From NCBI GenBank assembly GCA_963832745.1, contig CAWHVC010000002.1, positions 192,001 to 256,000 of the forward strand: a DNA stretch of 64,000 nt, in the 5' to 3' direction. Origin of the DNA: Candidatus Bathyarchaeota archaeon. GTDB taxonomy: Archaea > Thermoproteota > Bathyarchaeia > Bathyarchaeales > Bathycorpusculaceae. A program made the position numbers and the translations under genes. Positions 1 through 5,937 of the stretch are shown here, piece after piece. The number at the start of each line of letters is the position of its first letter. Position 1 is the first letter of the stretch. The notes under the pieces were generated by a model that was not told where the DNA came from, did not search any database, and was given only the letters and a program-made list of their open reading frames with translations.

Positions 1-516
1 AAAGCCTGAGGATGCCGCCACGATTTTCGGTAAACGCTCGTTTGATGTTGACGGTGCTGCAAGAAATATAGTGTTTAAGCCTTTTGTGTCTGCGGTTGTT
101 TTGAAGTCGGCTGCTTCTTCAACTGGCAAGTCGGGCACGATGAAACCGTCCACTTTGTGCTCTTTAGCTGCGCCCAAGAACTTGTCAAGGCCAATACGGA
201 ACACTGGGTTGTAGTACGTCATGATGACTATTGGCACGTCATGTTCTGCTTTGATTTGTTTGGCGATTTCCAGCACTTTCATTGGTGTGGTACCGGCGTT
301 TAGTGCGCGTAGGCTTGCTGCTTGAATTGTTGGACCGTCAGCAATCGGGTCGGAGAACGGCAACCCTAACTCAAGGATATCTACGCCGCCTCTGATTAGT
401 GCCTCCGCAATCTTGGGCGTCGCGTCAGGCGTTGGGTCTCCAGCCATAATGTAGCCAATCAGGCAGCCGTACCCGTTTTTGTTATTGTTTTGAAAAACTT
501 GGTTTATGCTGTTCAT
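1..516 (-). CDS. trpA: tryptophan synthase alpha chain (3' part outside window)
   Basis: Manual translation from ATG at 516: ...IGYIMAGDP...[23 protein letters not shown]...MTYYNP...GFIVPDLP; ATGA overlap with the trpB stop. Confidence 0.95.
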
Positions 517-1709
517 ATTTTCGCACCTATGTAATCAGCTATTGTTTCCACATCCTTGTCACCGCGTCCCGAGAGGGTGACAATGATGGATTGGTTTTTG
601 CTCATTTTTGGGGCAATCTTGATTGCATGCGCAAGGGCATGGGATGATTCAAGCGCGGGTAAGATGCCTTCGGTTTTGCAGAGCAACAGAAAAGCGTCTA
701 CGGCTTCTTTGTCTGTGGCTGAAGCGTATTCGGCGCGTTTCATGGTTTTTAGGAAGGAATGTTCAGGGCCAACTCCCGGGTAATCAAGGCCCGCGGAGAT
801 GCTTGTTGTGTTACGGATTTGCCCATTATCGTCCTGCAGGATGTATGTATGCATGCCATGGAAGACTCCTTCGTAGCCTGCCGCGAGAGTGGCTGCGTGT
901 TTGCCCGTTTCTACGCCTTCACCAGCTGCTTCAACCCCGACGAGTTTGACTTCTAAGTCGTCTTCAAATGGGTAGAATGTGCCCATAGCATTGCTTCCGC
1001 CGCCAACACAAGCAACCAACGCGTCTGGCAGTTTGCCCTCTTTTTCATGGAACTGCTTTTTGATTTCTTTTCCGATTACACTTTGGAAGTCCCGAACCAT
1101 CATCGGGTAAGGATGAGGACCCATAGTGGTGCCGATAAGGTAGTAGGTTGACTCCACGTTTGTTGCCCAATCACGAAAAGCCTCGTTAATTGAGTCCTTA
1201 AGCGTTTTAGAACCAGCCTCAACAGGGTGCACTTGGGCATCTAAGAGTTTCATGCGAAAAACGTTGAGTCTTTGACGTTCGCAGTCTTCTGTTCCCATGT
1301 AGATTTCAGCTTTCAAACCCAAAGCGGCACATGCGATGGCGGTGGCTACTCCGTGTTGACCTGCTCCAGTTTCAGCGATAACGCGGGTTTTACCCATGCG
1401 TTTAGCAAGCAGTGCCTGTCCAAGGGTGTTGTTGATTTTGTGTGCTCCGCCGTGTGCGAGGTCTTCTCGTTTTAGGTAAATTTTTGCTCCGCTCAGTTTG
1501 CGTGTTAAGTTTTCCGCGAGGTAGAGCGGTGTTGGTCTGCCCACGAAGTCGGCGAGGTAATAGTCGAGTTGTTTTTGGAATTCTGGATCCTTTTTAGCTT
1601 GGTCATAGGCGGCTTCCAGTTCGTTAACTGCTTCCATCAAAATTTCTGGAACGTATCTGCCGCCGAATTTTCCAAACTTCCCATCTACTGGGTAATTGCT
1701 TATTTTCAT
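513..1709 (-). CDS. trpB: tryptophan synthase beta chain
   Basis: [18 protein letters not shown]-lysine motif, [27 protein letters not shown]. Confidence 0.98.
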
Positions 1710-2482
1710 GCGTTTACAAACTCCCTAACTTTTTCTTCCACATTTTCTGTTAACATTATACTTGAGCCGATAAGAAACGCGGAAGCGCCTGCCTCACTAA
1801 GAAACCGTAGGTCTTCTGGCGTGCTGATTCCGCTTTCACTTACGACAACTAAATCTTCAAAACTGTTATTTTTGAGAATTTTTTTCGTTGTGTTTAAGTC
1901 TATTTTTAGGTCTGCGAGGTTTCGGTTGTTTATGCCAATTATGTCAGCGTTGGTTTTTTTGGCTGCTCGGAATTCTTCTTCTGTGTGCACTTCAAGCAGA
2001 ACCTCCAAACCTTTAGTGTGCACAAGTGTTATCATGTTATCAAGGTCTAATTGGGCGTAGCCGCGGTCGTAAAGTGCTTTAATCAGCAGTACTGCGTCTG
2101 CTCCAATGTAGTTTGCAGCATTGATTTGCACATGACTTAAGATTATGTCTTTCATTAAAATTGGAAGCTTTACTGCCCTACGAACATCTGCAAGTGTGTC
2201 TGTTGAACCTTTGAAGTGTTTTGGTTCTGTTAAGACTGATATTGCTGTTGCTCCACCTTTCTCCATGGATTTAGCGATTTCTGTTGGGTCCATGTTTTCT
2301 CGTATAACTCCAAGGGTTGGTGAAGCTGGCTTAATTTCGGTTATTATTGGGTTTCTGTTGCATTCAAGGATTGCTTTTTTGAGGCTTAAGTGCTGGCTTG
2401 GTGTAGGCTTAAACAGGTCATAATATCCACTGTCAATGGTTACTTGCGCGTCAAAGCCTAAAGTATCAAAGAAGTCACTCAC
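1706..2482 (-). CDS. trpC: indole-3-glycerol phosphate synthase
   Basis: [30 protein letters not shown] motifs. Confidence 0.96.
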
Positions 2483-3530
2483 TTTTTTCTATCTCCTCAA
2501 GAGTCTGTAAGCTACCACCAGAAACGCTGATTAACTCTTTTAGTTTACCGTAAGCTGCACCGGTTACGATGGATTTTTTGGCGATTTTCATAGCCTCTTT
2601 GAAATCGTCTGCTTTGCCACCCACAATAATCCCCGCTGCACTATTCACTAAAACCATCTCTGCTTTGGGGTCACTTAGGTTTTTGCCTGAAAGTATACTG
2701 TAAATGGTTCGGGCGCTCTCTTCAGAACTGGAAACTTTTAAGTCGGCAGCTTCTGCTTGCCTTACCCCAAAAAACTCTGGACCAACCTCAAGTTCGTGAA
2801 CTATGCCCTGTTTTAAATGTGCAATCTTTGTTTTGCCCAACGTTGAGATTTCATCTAACCCATCTAAGCCATGAACCACCATTGCTTCTTCACAGCCCAA
2901 CTTGTTTAGCGTGTTAGCTAAGGGTACCGTAAGTTTGGGGTCATAAACTCCAAGCAGCTGTCCTTTGGCGCTTGCCGGGTTCGTTAATGGTCCCAGAATG
3001 TTGAAGACGGTGCGTATGCCAATTTCTTTGCGTGGCTGGGCTGCAAACTTCATGGCTGGATGAAACGCCTGCGCAAACATGAAGCCGACCCCTATTTTTT
3101 CAATTGCCATTTGGACTGCTTCGGGTGTCATGGTAAGGTTTAGTCCCAGCTTTTCCAGCACGTCAGCGCTGCCACTTTTGCTGGTAACTGCACGATTTCC
3201 ATGCTTGGCAACTGGAATTCCTGCACCTGCAATAACAAATGCTGCTGCAGTGCTTACGTTAAATGTTTTGATTTTATCTCCACCTGTCCCGCAAGTGTCA
3301 ACAAGCCTGCTTCTCACGTTGGGTTTGATTTGTCTGCATTGGCTCCTCATTACGCTGGCAAAAGCGATGAGTTCTTCCACTGATTCGCCTTTGATTCGTA
3401 ATGCCGTTAAGAAAGCACCTGTTTGGGCACTCGTGGCTTGTCCCGTCATGACTTCTTGCATGACTTGTGATGCTTCTTCAAGAGAGAGGTCTTTGCCCTC
3501 GATTAGTTTTTGAATGAACTCGCGTATCAT
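2475..3530 (-). CDS. trpD: anthranilate phosphoribosyltransferase
   Basis: DTCGTGGD, FNVST, KHGNRAVTSKSGSADVLE, GLDEIS. Confidence 0.97.
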   Translation of the reverse strand: MIREFIQKLIEGKDLSLEEASQVMQEVMTGQATSAQTGAFLTALRIKGESVEELIAFASVMRSQCRQIKPNVRSRLVDTCGTGGDKIKTFNVSTAAAFVIAGAGIPVAKHGNRAVTSKSGSADVLEKLGLNLTMTPEAVQMAIEKIGVGFMFAQAFHPAMKFAAQPRKEIGIRTVFNILGPLTNPASAKGQLLGVYDPKLTVPLANTLNKLGCEEAMVVHGLDGLDEISTLGKTKIAHLKQGIVHELEVGPEFFGVRQAEAADLKVSSSEESARTIYSILSGKNLSDPKAEMVLVNSAAGIIVGGKADDFKEAMKIAKKSIVTGAAYGKLKELISVSGGSLQTLEEIEKSE

Positions 3531-4114
3531 AGGTTTTTGCCTTCAATGAAGTTGCGTATGATTGTTTTGCCGTCTTGGCATAGAATTGATTCTGGGTGGA
3601 ATTGGACGCCGTAAATGGGGTATTTGACGTGGCGTATGCCCATGATTTCGCCGTCATCGGCTGCTTCAGCTGTGATTTTGAGGCAATCTGGGATTGAATC
3701 GCGTTCACCTGCAAGGGAATGGTAGCGTGTGGCTGAGAAGGGGTTGCGTACGCCTGTGAAGAGTGCTTTGCCGTCGTGGTTGATTATGCAGGTTTTGCCA
3801 TGCATGAGCTTTTTGGCGTGAACCACTTTTCCTCCATAGGTGTGAATTATTCCCTGATGCCCAAGGCAAACGCCGAGCGTGGGGATGTTGTGGCTCATGG
3901 TTTGCAAGATGGCTTTACAGACGCCAAAGAATTTTTCGTCTTCAGGATTGCCTGGTCCTGGTGAGATTACGATGCGGTCAGGCTTCAGTTTGGTGAGTTC
4001 TTGTAGGTTGGTTTGGTCATTACGGAAAACCACTGTTTCCGCTCCAAGTTCGCCAATGTATTGTACGAGGTTGTAGACGAATGAATCGTAATTATCAATA
4101 ACAAGAACCTTCAC
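3527..4114 (-). CDS. trpG: anthranilate synthase component II
   Basis: IDNYDSF, SPGPG, GVCLGHQ, QFHPES; GTG start. Confidence 0.96.
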   Translation of the reverse strand: MKVLVIDNYDSFVYNLVQYIGELGAETVVFRNDQTNLQELTKLKPDRIVISPGPGNPEDEKFFGVCKAILQTMSHNIPTLGVCLGHQGIIHTYGGKVVHAKKLMHGKTCIINHDGKALFTGVRNPFSATRYHSLAGERDSIPDCLKITAEAADDGEIMGIRHVKYPIYGVQFHPESILCQDGKTIIRNFIEGKNL

Positions 4115-4115
4115 G

Positions 4116-5533
4116 TTAGGTGCCTCCTACGTTTTCGAGCGCTTTCATTAGGGCTTTGGCTTTGTTTTCAGTTTCAAACCACTCGCGTTCAGGAACAGAA
4201 TCCGCAACAATTCCTGCCCCTGCTTGAATGTAGGCTTGTTTCCTTGTCAGCGAACAGTGTACGGATTGTTATGGCGAAGTCTGCATTGCCATTGTACGAG
4301 AAGTAGCCTACTGCGCCAGCATAAGGTCCGCGTTGTGAAGGTTCTAACTCGTCAATGATTTCCATTGCGCGAACCTTTGGTGCTCCCGAAACTGTGCCTG
4401 CTGGGAAGACCGAGCGTAAAGCGTCAAAACTTTCAAGTTCATCCCGAAGTTCGCCGACTACTTGGGAAACAATATGCTGTACGTGACTGTACTGGTGAAC
4501 TTTCATGAATTCGGGTACACGTACGCTTCCGTACTTGGAGATTCTTCCAACGTCGTTGCGTGCAAGGTCAACAAGCATGACGTGTTCGGCACGTTCTTTG
4601 GGGTCAGAGAGTAGTTCGTGAGCTAAGCGGCTGTTTTCTGTTTCATCTGTCGCAATTTGGGTGGTTCCCGCAATAGGAAAGGTTTCTACCATGCGGTTGT
4701 CAACGCGAACAAGCATTTCGGGGCTTGAGCCAACAATTTGCCGTTCGCCAGCCTTGTAGTAGTACATGTAAGGGGACGGGTTAATGCGCCTTAGAGCCTG
4801 ATAGAACGGAATCAGGTTACCTTCGGTTTGGAACTGATAACGTTTAGAGAGGACAACTTGGAAAATGTCGCCTGCCGTTACATAGTCTTTGGCTTTCTCC
4901 ACCGCTTTCTCGAAATGGTCTTTTGAAAAGTTTACCTGCGGCTCAGAAACCGTTAACTCGCTATTGTCGGCGGGTTTTTGGAGTAGCTTCTCAACTTCCG
5001 CCTGCCGGTTCTCTTCTTGATAATAGTAAAGCGCCAACTGTTGGGTGTGGTCGAAGATGAAGCCGTCATCGTAAATGCCCATTTCAACCTCTGGAAATTC
5101 CAAGTCACCCTTTGGTTGGGGCAGTTTTTCCCAGTACCTCACAGCATCGTATGAAATGTAGCCTACTGCTCCCCCAACAAGCCGGAACTCGCGGTTGTGG
5201 ACTGCTTTGGGTTTTAGGATTTCTTGGATCAGGTTTAGCGGGTCGTTGGTTTTTTCTGTGGTTTTTTCGCCTGTTTGTTCGTTGCTGATTGTGGTTTGAC
5301 CATTTTTGGCTTGAAATGTCATTGTTGGCTCAAAGCCGATGAATGAGTATTGGGCTAGCTTTTTTGGTCCTTCGATGGATTCTAGGAAGTATGCGTTTTT
5401 GTAGTGGCTTTGGAGTTTTGAAAAGATTTCGAAGGGTTGTTGGGTGTAGGAGGCTTTCTTGTAAGTTATTGGGTGTGCTTGTTTAGTTGTTTGTGTTGTT
5501 TTGGGCGTTTGTGCGCCAAAGGCAATTCCTCAT
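4116..5533 (-). CDS. trpE: anthranilate synthase component I; full length needs two frame changes (about 5520 and about 4240)
   Basis: Main frame is open from 5529 ([19 protein letters not shown] upstream of the called ATG at 5322), with [31 protein letters not shown]. The C-terminal [13 protein letters not shown]...KAKAL is in another frame ending at TAA 4116. The SD-backed ATG at 5533 is out of frame. Confidence 0.9.
5483..5533 (-). CDS. 16-codon trp leader [19 protein letters not shown] (one Trp codon)
   Basis: AGGAG SD 9 nt upstream of ATG 5533; ATG AGG AAT TGC CTT TGG CGC ... TAA 5483. Confidence 0.6.
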   Translation of the reverse strand: MRNCLWRTNAQNNTNN

Positions 5534-5574
5534 TTTGTAGTGCTCCTATCAGTTCAGAAGCATACAGCAATGTT

Positions 5575-5606
5575 TTATTTAAGGCTTGTTTGTACATTAA
5601 TGTACG
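5575..5606 (-). promoter_or_regulatory. trp operon promoter (TTAAATAA) with adjacent tandem TRP-box operator TGTACA-N4-TGTACG
   Basis: Palindrome GTACATTAATGTAC 5592-5605; resembles the TGTACA TRP boxes bound by archaeal TrpY. Confidence 0.6.
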
Positions 5607-5613
5607 TTTGCAG

Positions 5614-5937
5614 TTAATAGCGATTTAACATGCTGTTCATCCAATCAAAATACTCCTTAGAACTATCAACAATAGGAACAGCAACCACTTCAGGCACCTC
5701 ATAACTATGCAAAGCTCTAACACGCTCCTCCAAATCCCTAAACAAGTCAGCCCGGGACTTCATAATCATCACATACTCTTCCTGGTAATCGATTTTTCCA
5801 TTCCAATGGAAATGCGAAGCCACGGGGCCAATAATGTTAGCGCAAGCAATCAAACGTTCATTTAATAGGGTTTTAGCGATTTTCTCTGCTTCCATCTTGT
5901 TTGATGTTGTAACGTAAACCATGACAAAGCCGTTCAT
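5614..5937 (-). CDS. cutA: divalent-cation tolerance protein CutA
   Basis: RLIACANI, HSYEVPEVVAVP motifs; 107 aa. Confidence 0.93.
   Translation of the reverse strand: MNGFVMVYVTTSNKMEAEKIAKTLLNERLIACANIIGPVASHFHWNGKIDYQEEYVMIMKSRADLFRDLEERVRALHSYEVPEVVAVPIVDSSKEYFDWMNSMLNRY

Follow-up and report, generated by a model that had tools for sequence, protein, structure and literature searches.

How ribosomes enter the reading frame of trpE is the question raised by a locus of Candidatus Bathyarchaeota archaeon, in which this first gene of the tryptophan operon lacks an in-frame start codon where one would be expected. The locus lies in a stretch of 64,000 nucleotides (nt), hereafter the window (assembly GCA_963832745.1, contig CAWHVC010000002.1, positions 192,001 to 256,000 of the forward strand). 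The gene, encoding anthranilate synthase component I, is preceded on the minus strand by an ATG with a Shine-Dalgarno (SD) sequence, and this ATG is one base out of the trpE frame. Comparison of trpE loci suggests that trpE is expressed via a programmed +1 frameshift that reads the supply of tryptophan, a combined claim that is considered fairly probable.

The out-of-frame start of trpE

The following elements are referred to throughout (positions in the window).

5543-5547, minus strand: SD sequence AGGAG, 9 nt 5' of the ATG, complementary to the 16S rRNA 3' end of the same genome
5483-5533, minus strand: zero-frame leader open reading frame (ORF) of 16 codons with stop TAA at 5485-5483, from sequence and translation; conservation is limited to the first six codons
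5527-5531, minus strand: internal G-rich SD-like element GAGGA (codon 2 RGG), 5 nt before CTT (5521-5519); G5 in 131/131 loci, G6 in 117/131
5515-5521, minus strand: proposed +1 shift site CTT_TGG_C (P site CTT, A site TGG; TTT GGC after the slip); T14-T16, G17 and G18 invariant in 131/131 loci, C19 in 113/131
5446-5514, minus strand: G-poor, A/C-rich linker (Gly, then Q/T/K/P-rich) from the shift site to the conserved TrpE fold; 13-27 codons across loci
4189-5520, minus strand: trpE in the +1 frame, as assembled (NCBIfam TIGR01820 TrpE-arch, E 2.7e-144)

The leader reads ATG AGG AAT TGC CTT TGG CGC ... TAA, with the ATG at 5533-5531. All sequence statements of a first-pass annotation of the window proved correct on re-reading. 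The ATG behind AGGAG opens the 16-codon ORF, GAGGA (5531-5527) precedes the CTT by 5 nt, and the trpE frame is open from 5529, directly after a TGA (5532-5530) that overlaps the ATG. This frame is +1 relative to the leader, and its earliest ATG, GTG or TTG, at 5322, is already past the conserved TrpE block. The approximately 55 nt after the site had been described as almost only A and C. This stretch is a conserved G-poor feature that also encodes the linker: across 132 loci, the 54 nt after TTTGG contain 11% G, compared with 19.5% deeper in the gene.

Conservation of the layout across trpE loci

A first search of 31 related genomes yielded 20 trpE loci, and the same out-of-frame arrangement is found in all but one of them. 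In a wider search, 130 of 251 genomes of the order had a match, and the 5' regions of near-full-length matches were taken (109 regions). Six archaeal loci with public names were added (titles Bathyarchaeia, Nitrososphaerota, Thaumarchaeota and Nitrosarchaeum). The total is 135 trpE loci including that of the window, chosen by protein homology alone. Fragments, matches starting far inside the query at a contig end, and split or stop-ridden pieces were dropped before this count (G010, G012, G039, G062, G097, G105, G111, G188, G190, G202, G230 and G259, as well as second pieces from G115, G128, G204, G215 and G224). At least six families of the order are represented, by assemblies made independently, although related genomes do not count as independent samples.

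An in-frame TTT-GG near the opening of the trpE frame is present in 132 of the 135 loci. A canonical start lies exactly 13 nt upstream of it in 131 of these 132 (ATG 119, GTG 9, TTG 3), resulting in a leader of six codons, M-x-x-x-NTT-TGG, in the zero frame with trpE in +1. The remaining locus, L202, has ATA at the start position and an ATG two codons farther upstream in the same frame. With the same detector, the six-codon NTT-TGG layout was found in none of 74 bacterial trpE genes, and an ordinary in-frame start is present in all 74.

The orthologs do not place the ATG in frame with trpE, since 131 of the 135 keep it one base out. Similarly, the slippery site is maintained: NTT-TGG is kept while the other leader codons and the linker vary. 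Judged by this comparison, the 5' layout of trpE is real and not an assembly error. The zero-frame ORF measures 7-34 codons (median 16, 132 loci) and contains a single Trp codon in 128 of the 132 loci. An echo of the E. coli TrpL end in the leader residues LWRT, pointed out earlier, is rejected as chance, given that W is followed by RT in only 6 of the 132 leaders, less often than by HT, LR or QN.

Codon constraint at the proposed shift site

The Phe codon of the trpE frame at the site is TTT in 132 loci and TTC in none. Elsewhere in the same genes TTC is favoured, both at two other conserved Phe positions (TTC:TTT 54:23 and 50:25) and over all remaining Phe codons in the first 140 residues (540:418). 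Something other than Phe coding therefore keeps the third T, which doubles as the first base of TGG in the zero frame. The codon after TTT is GGC in 114/132 loci compared with 29/77 at a control Gly, and the base after TGG is mostly C. In the position matrix of 131 loci, ATG, R4, G5, G6, A8, T9, T14-T16, G17, G18 and C19 are invariant or nearly so, and positions beyond are variable.

TGG occupies the A site in 132 of the 135 loci. The P-site codon is CTT in 57, GTT in 48, ATT in 20 and TTT in 7 of the 132 loci, and a tRNA-Leu(GAG) is present in the source genome. In this genome, ARAGORN reported 39 tRNAs, among them only two tRNA-Leu and no tRNA-Trp or tRNA-Tyr; the genes concerned probably contain introns overlooked by the default run.

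Where the frame changes is indicated by two further features. A stop closes the trpE frame at most 9 nt before TTT in 73/132 loci (TGA overlapping ATGA in 64, TAG in 9). The nine TAG loci read ATG GGT GAY YTA GTT TGG, with the TAG directly before TTT. Because this TAG blocks trpE-frame translation from upstream, the change of frame in those nine loci should take place at NTT-TGG. In addition, the distance from TTT to the anchor varies in length but is always in frame with TTT-GG, which argues that trpE-frame translation starts at TTT-GG.

Two loci depart from the site itself. L004 (genome G006), which lacks one T of the run, reads ATG AGG AAC CAC CTT GAC AAC.. in frame with trpE and so encodes directly (MRNHLDNQTT..) what the frameshift is predicted to produce. 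Either this is a constitutive allele that arose naturally, or one base of the T run was lost in assembly. L203 (genome G089) has CTT TAG, a stop replacing the Trp codon and creating a prfB-like site. The same genome carries a second trpE copy, L204, with an ordinary in-frame ATG.

A second gene with the same cassette

Two whole-genome scans of the source genome were run for a start, the cassette and a long +1 ORF. In the second of them (ATG-RGG-NAT-YGC-YTT-codon), 41 matches were found, and only trpE and one other gene lack an in-frame start.

G000:C3:281654-283195, leader at L210 1573-1602: LeuA/CimA-family synthase, second cassette gene (NCBIfam NF002085, 614.7 bits)

This gene heads a cluster comprising ilvB, ilvN, leuC, leuD, leuB, a second LeuA-family gene and pheA. 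The second LeuA-family paralog, 7 kb downstream of the first, has an ordinary ATG. The leader of the cassette gene reads ATG GGG TAT TGC TTT ATT CAA .. TAA (MGYCFIQPLP), and the enzyme in the +1 frame reads (W)GIALFNRFPKRINFLDTTLRDGEQ. Orthologs were matched in 85 of 121 genomes of the order. Among the best 30 loci, which were examined, ATG-RGG-NAT-YGY-TTT-ATY is present in all 30, and the sixth codon is always Ile (ATC 17, ATT 13). This swap is synonymous in the leader frame and flips the overlapping gene-frame residue between Phe and Ser. A stop directly follows the Ile codon in 10 of the 30 leaders. LeuA and CimA identity were not separated by NCBIfam and PDB sequence searches; the Ile codon suggests a citramalate synthase (CimA). 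The hisG gene of the source genome starts at an ordinary ATG with an SD sequence.

The first scan gave 74 matches, mostly internal to long ORFs. Twelve of these have a +1 frame opening near the start. Their N-terminal translations were read, and they were dropped as not being amino-acid biosynthesis genes. Three of the twelve were compared with Pfam, with no family, a weak PLD-like match and an ABC ATPase as the outcome.

The G-rich element and leaders outside the order

The 16S rRNA 3' end of the source genome is ..GGAUCACCUCCU, also given as ..GAUCACCUCCU. In the 131-locus matrix, positions -14 to -9 before the start are G/A-rich. A second G-rich element lies inside the leader. Codon 2 is AGG in 64, GGG in 54, GGT in 13 and GGC in 1 of the 132 loci, and codons 2-3 are always G-rich. 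The main clade has AGG or GGG and then NAT, and the TAG clade has GGT GAY, a match to the SD core GGUGAU. GGT GGN is found in ammonia-oxidiser-type leaders, a label for f19-type leaders that rests on likeness to the Nitrosarchaeum locus L025. The element is fixed in position and partly complementary to the 16S 3' end, with which it may pair.

Outside the order, 60 trpE loci of the phylum were hand-picked to spread over families and are not a random sample. A leader ending in NTT-TGG is present in 36 of the 60, with six codons in 23 and with 4, 7 or 8 codons in 13. In the ten leaders of 7-8 codons, the spacing of GGN-GGN (or GGT-GAC) is constant relative to NTT and not relative to the start. 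The element thus fits an internal SD-like stimulator of the kind found in bacterial prfB, on the premise that it pairs with the rRNA.

No such leader was found in the other 24 of the 60 loci, which, by their in-frame starts, apparently use ordinary initiation. Six families (f23, f27, f33, f35, f42 and f50) contribute 21 of them; the others are the single f56 locus and one locus each from f13 and f30. The loci L269-L271 (family f31) carry an additional base in the cassette (GGGGTATGTGYCTTTGG), which places the usual ATG in the third frame; a new ATG gives a four-codon leader, M-C-L-W.

Proposed mechanism and alternative explanations

According to the proposed mechanism, ribosomes would start at the SD-backed ATG (5533) and translate M-R-N-C-L, which brings CUU into the P site with the single UGG next to be decoded. 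When charged tRNA-Trp is scarce, the A site would be empty and peptidyl-tRNA-Leu would slip from CUU to UUU. GGC would be read next and full-length TrpE made, with the predicted N-terminus MRNCLGAQTPK... Translation would then continue into trpGDCBA, whose genes overlap tightly. With ample Trp-tRNA, UGG would be decoded and the ribosome would end at the zero-frame stop (5485-5483) without making TrpE. GAGGA, a G-rich SD-like element at a fixed upstream distance, probably aids the slip as in bacterial prfB.

Of the ways in which the trpE of the window could be made, a +1 frameshift at CTT_TGG has the best support, and on the comparisons given above considerable confidence is placed in it. Sensing of tryptophan by the shift site is likely. 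The core of the interpretation given in the first-pass annotation is therefore supported at the level of sequence. Not supported is its further suggestion that FttA/aCPSF1 terminates the operon at the C-rich stretch; abstracts on aCPSF1/FttA link this factor to U-tracts.

Several observations weigh against the frameshift. No canonical in-frame start precedes the conserved fold in 62 of the 132 loci, but 70 have some such start, 20 of the 132 have ATG or GTG directly before TTT, and an in-frame GTG occurs within the ammonia-oxidiser-type leaders (ATG GGT G..). Clades with an in-frame start could make TrpE by ordinary initiation; the clade of the window has no such start. The P-site codons GTT (48) and ATT (20) are unable to re-pair at the first position after a slip. 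Positions 5-9 (GG-N-AT) of the main clade show the variation expected of trpE-frame codons for Gly-Ile/Val, a pattern that could mean an earlier shift at codon 2 or a constraint at the RNA level. We think that a nucleotide-level constraint of the cassette is the better explanation, because the G-I-A pattern precedes two proteins that are unrelated to each other and is missing from the loci whose frame is closed by TAG. Finally, the trpE of the window has a second frame break, so that the gene may be defective in this genome.

Among the alternatives, a shift at CUU_UGG that is required but constitutive, setting a fixed low TrpE level or persisting as a tolerated relic with no tryptophan response, retains a small but appreciable chance. 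Conservation of the layout alone measures no response, the conserved palindrome and promoter described below may already regulate transcription, and L203 has exchanged TGG for a TAG stop. On the other hand, the A-site codon names the pathway end product in two unrelated operons, Trp in trp and Ile in the LeuA/CimA-ilv-leu cluster, a match that makes the strongest case for sensing of amino-acid supply over a fixed level. Moreover, the Ile codon changes only synonymously in 30/30 orthologs, an identity that a site of fixed efficiency would not need.

It is improbable that TrpE starts non-canonically in its own frame, at ATT (5526) in the window and at ATC or ATA in relatives, with the ATG frame as a competing or coupling upstream ORF that overlaps it. 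ATH is kept at this place in the main clade (A8 122/131, T9 121/131), and the trpE-frame peptide G-I/V-x-F-G looks conserved. However, the SD sequence is 16 nt from the ATT with a strong ATG in between, and the TAG directly before TTT in nine loci bars starts at or upstream of that position. Coding in the trpE frame leaves unexplained why TTT is never TTC and why C mostly follows GG. In addition, the same nucleotide cassette heads an unrelated enzyme, and the N-terminus of L004 lies in the ATG frame. For the clade of the window, a start at the ATT is unlikely on these grounds.

Slightly less probable again is a start at the ATG followed by a +1 shift at codon 2 (AUG_R_GGN), which would yield M-G-I-A-F-G.. 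and leave the zero-frame UGG as a back-up or with another role. Positions 7 and 10 of the main clade do vary like third-position wobble of the trpE frame, and G-I/V is kept in both trpE and the LeuA/CimA-family gene (WGIAL), where the G-I-A motif likewise precedes the enzyme. Such a shift is at odds with the TAG before TTT in 9 loci, with the in-frame allele L004, which retains M-R-N-H-L, and with the strict zero-frame constraint on TTT-GG and TTT-ATY. Furthermore, the leaders of 7-8 codons move the ATG and not the G-rich element or NTT-TGG.

It is scarcely credible that the out-of-frame ATG results from an assembly error of one base, or that trpE is decaying into a pseudogene here. In favour of this are the 5-contig state of the assembly and the second frame break near 4233-4248, which has no counterpart in 7/7 relatives. 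However, 130 further genomes, assembled independently, show the same 5' layout, which refutes an error at the 5' site, and the trp operon downstream of trpE is intact (Pfam).

Genomic context, promoter and 3' end of trpE

Further features of the locus are listed below.

1-4114, minus strand: trpG, trpD, trpC, trpB and trpA, with trpA cut by the window end (ORF coordinates; Pfam GATase, Glycos_transf_3, IGPS, PALP, Trp_syntA)
4233-4248, minus strand: one extra base in GACAAGGAAACAAGCC, breaking the trpE frame near its 3' end; unique to this genome and absent from 7/7 aligned relatives
about 5575-5588, minus strand: promoter element resembling a TFB recognition element (BRE) and TATA box, ..AAGCCTTAAATAA.. 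(from sequence)
5592-5605, minus strand: palindrome GTACA-TTAA-TGTAC just upstream of the promoter, between cutA and trpE; candidate operator for a transcription regulator

The genes of the operon follow each other on the minus strand in the order trpE, trpG, trpD, trpC, trpB, trpA, and cutA lies upstream of trpE, ending at 5614. The junctions overlap by 4-8 nt, and trpGDCBA would therefore be translationally coupled to trpE. The relatives of the source archaeon carry the names Bathyarchaeia or Nitrososphaerota, and trpE orthologs show 58-92% identity. At trpE in G219, G207, G234 and G209 (and G230), open frames of 607-668 residues suggest trpE-trpG fusions in certain species of the same genus.

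Against TIGR01820, the trpE of the window scores 481.8 bits (cut-off 512.05; residues 32-431 aligned), and a score below the cut-off fits the frame break near the 3' end. The conserved C-terminal 40-odd residues are found in another frame, down to a TAA at 4116-4118. The extra base may be an error of assembly or else a real mutation that inactivates the gene. Other indels in the window had been suspected from the sequence, and one is present here, separate from the 5' site. A search for sequencing runs identified none that contains this genome and no RNA run. It listed four DNA runs with small shares (0.06-0.08), which gave short contigs of relatives; none of these spans 5504-5557 or settles the 3' indel.

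A promoter sequence YTTAAATA is found in 126 of 130 trpE loci, mostly 47-53 nt before the start codon. From its position upstream, the ATG and its SD sequence should be on the mRNA. The palindrome at 5592-5605, which we take to resemble the TRP box of methanogen TrpY, has counterparts of the form GTRCA-N3-6-TGYAC 66-81 nt before the start codon in 46/130 trpE loci, and is likely an operator, as judged from its sequence and position. An inverted repeat, TCCCACA-N7-TGTGGGA, is located upstream of the promoter region of the LeuA/CimA-family gene (L210 1693-1713, minus strand). It is a possible operator, unlike the trp palindrome in sequence.

In the 5' untranslated region, a hairpin UGCUUCUG/UAGGAGCA at 5541-5562 (minus strand) would cover the SD sequence; folded from this one sequence, the structure is weak (z -1.87). 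In many relatives, a stretch resembling an anti-SD lies 5' of the SD sequence. RNAalifold found no conserved pairs between 34 nt upstream and 21 nt downstream of the start in 60 leaders, picked across families from the first 75 of 131 distinct leaders, and Rfam gave no match in 5250-5750. By single-sequence folding, RNAalifold and Rfam, there are no terminator or antiterminator hairpins after the leader ORF, a region that is G-poor.

Comparison with known systems

The closest parallel is bacterial prfB, encoding release factor 2, which is autoregulated by a +1 shift at CUU_UGA_C with an internal SD-like element upstream. In both genes the main ORF is +1 relative to a short zero-frame ORF, and a C follows the A-site codon. 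A G-rich element a few bases upstream, partly complementary to the rRNA in trpE, is the putative counterpart of the internal SD-like element of prfB. As in prfB, the P-site CUU would slip to UUU, a slow A site would be the trigger, and the quantity sensed would be the availability of whatever decodes the A-site codon. There are also differences. The A site is the stop UGA in prfB and the sense codon UGG in trpE, where the sensor would be charged tRNA-Trp instead of a release factor. The trpE site belongs to a biosynthetic gene at the head of an operon, in the domain Archaea; it falls at codons 5-6, right after initiation, and about 5-6 nt separate the G-rich element from the P-site codon. Given its sense codon in the A site and its location in trpE, the site falls outside the prfB system.

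A sense-codon counterpart is the Ty1/ABP140 site, CUU_AGG_C. According to the review PMC5009743, this site shifts at about 40% as its A-site codon is slowly decoded, and is highly efficient on its own. The heptamer differs from CTT TGG C (5521-5515) only in the A-site codon, and a slip from CUU driven by a slow, hungry sense codon is the shared principle, provided that UGG is slowly decoded at trpE. In contrast to trpE, the Ty1/ABP140 site as described there is eukaryotic and depends on a rare tRNA-Arg of fixed abundance, with no link to the biosynthesis of that amino acid.

The arrangement also recalls bacterial leader-peptide attenuation (trpL, ilv, leu). There, too, a short leader ORF contains end-product codons, a stalled ribosome turns the operon on, and product-matched leaders are found on different operons. 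Unlike bacterial attenuators, the trpE leader has no terminator/antiterminator hairpins, has one sensor codon and not a run, and overlaps the structural gene, so that the output would be a change of reading frame and not transcriptional read-through.

Archaeal trp operons are known to be repressed by TrpY-type proteins acting on transcription initiation (Methanothermobacter). A TGTAC-containing palindrome likewise adjoins the trp promoter here, and transcriptional control of the operon probably exists as well. Such control leaves the out-of-frame start unexplained.

Full-text literature searches, in which supplements were not covered, found no description of a frameshift at trpE or of an amino-acid-sensing frameshift in archaea. 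A term search within a 2021 review of archaeal recoding (PMC8211752) gave no occurrence of trpE, tryptophan, anthranilate, isopropylmalate or 'amino acid starvation'. The trpE site would thus represent programmed +1 frameshifting in a variant form not found in the literature searched.

Implications for archaeal amino-acid biosynthesis

If correct, the mechanism would have consequences for annotation. In hundreds of genomes, trpE and the LeuA/CimA-family gene will be shortened or given a wrong start by gene callers, and pathway-completeness calls for uncultured archaea could wrongly score such genes as broken. The cassette, at about 19 nt and with an apparently exchangeable sensor codon, may possibly be useful as a synthetic amino-acid sensor.

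To our knowledge, the tuning of amino-acid biosynthesis to supply is poorly understood in archaea, and bacterial-type leader-peptide attenuation is not established there. Two operons of this genome share one cassette, with UGG for trp and AUU/AUC for LeuA/CimA-ilv-leu, and the module looks portable and programmable. The chances are slightly better than even that a general scheme operates in many archaea, in which a short leader, mostly of six codons, with a slippery NUU, a single end-product codon and an upstream G-rich element responds to amino-acid shortage by a +1 shift into the first biosynthetic gene. This would be a ribosome-intrinsic counterpart of bacterial attenuation and a new regulatory use of recoding, in which tRNA charging is the sensor and the reading frame is the switch, without an RNA switch or protein factor.

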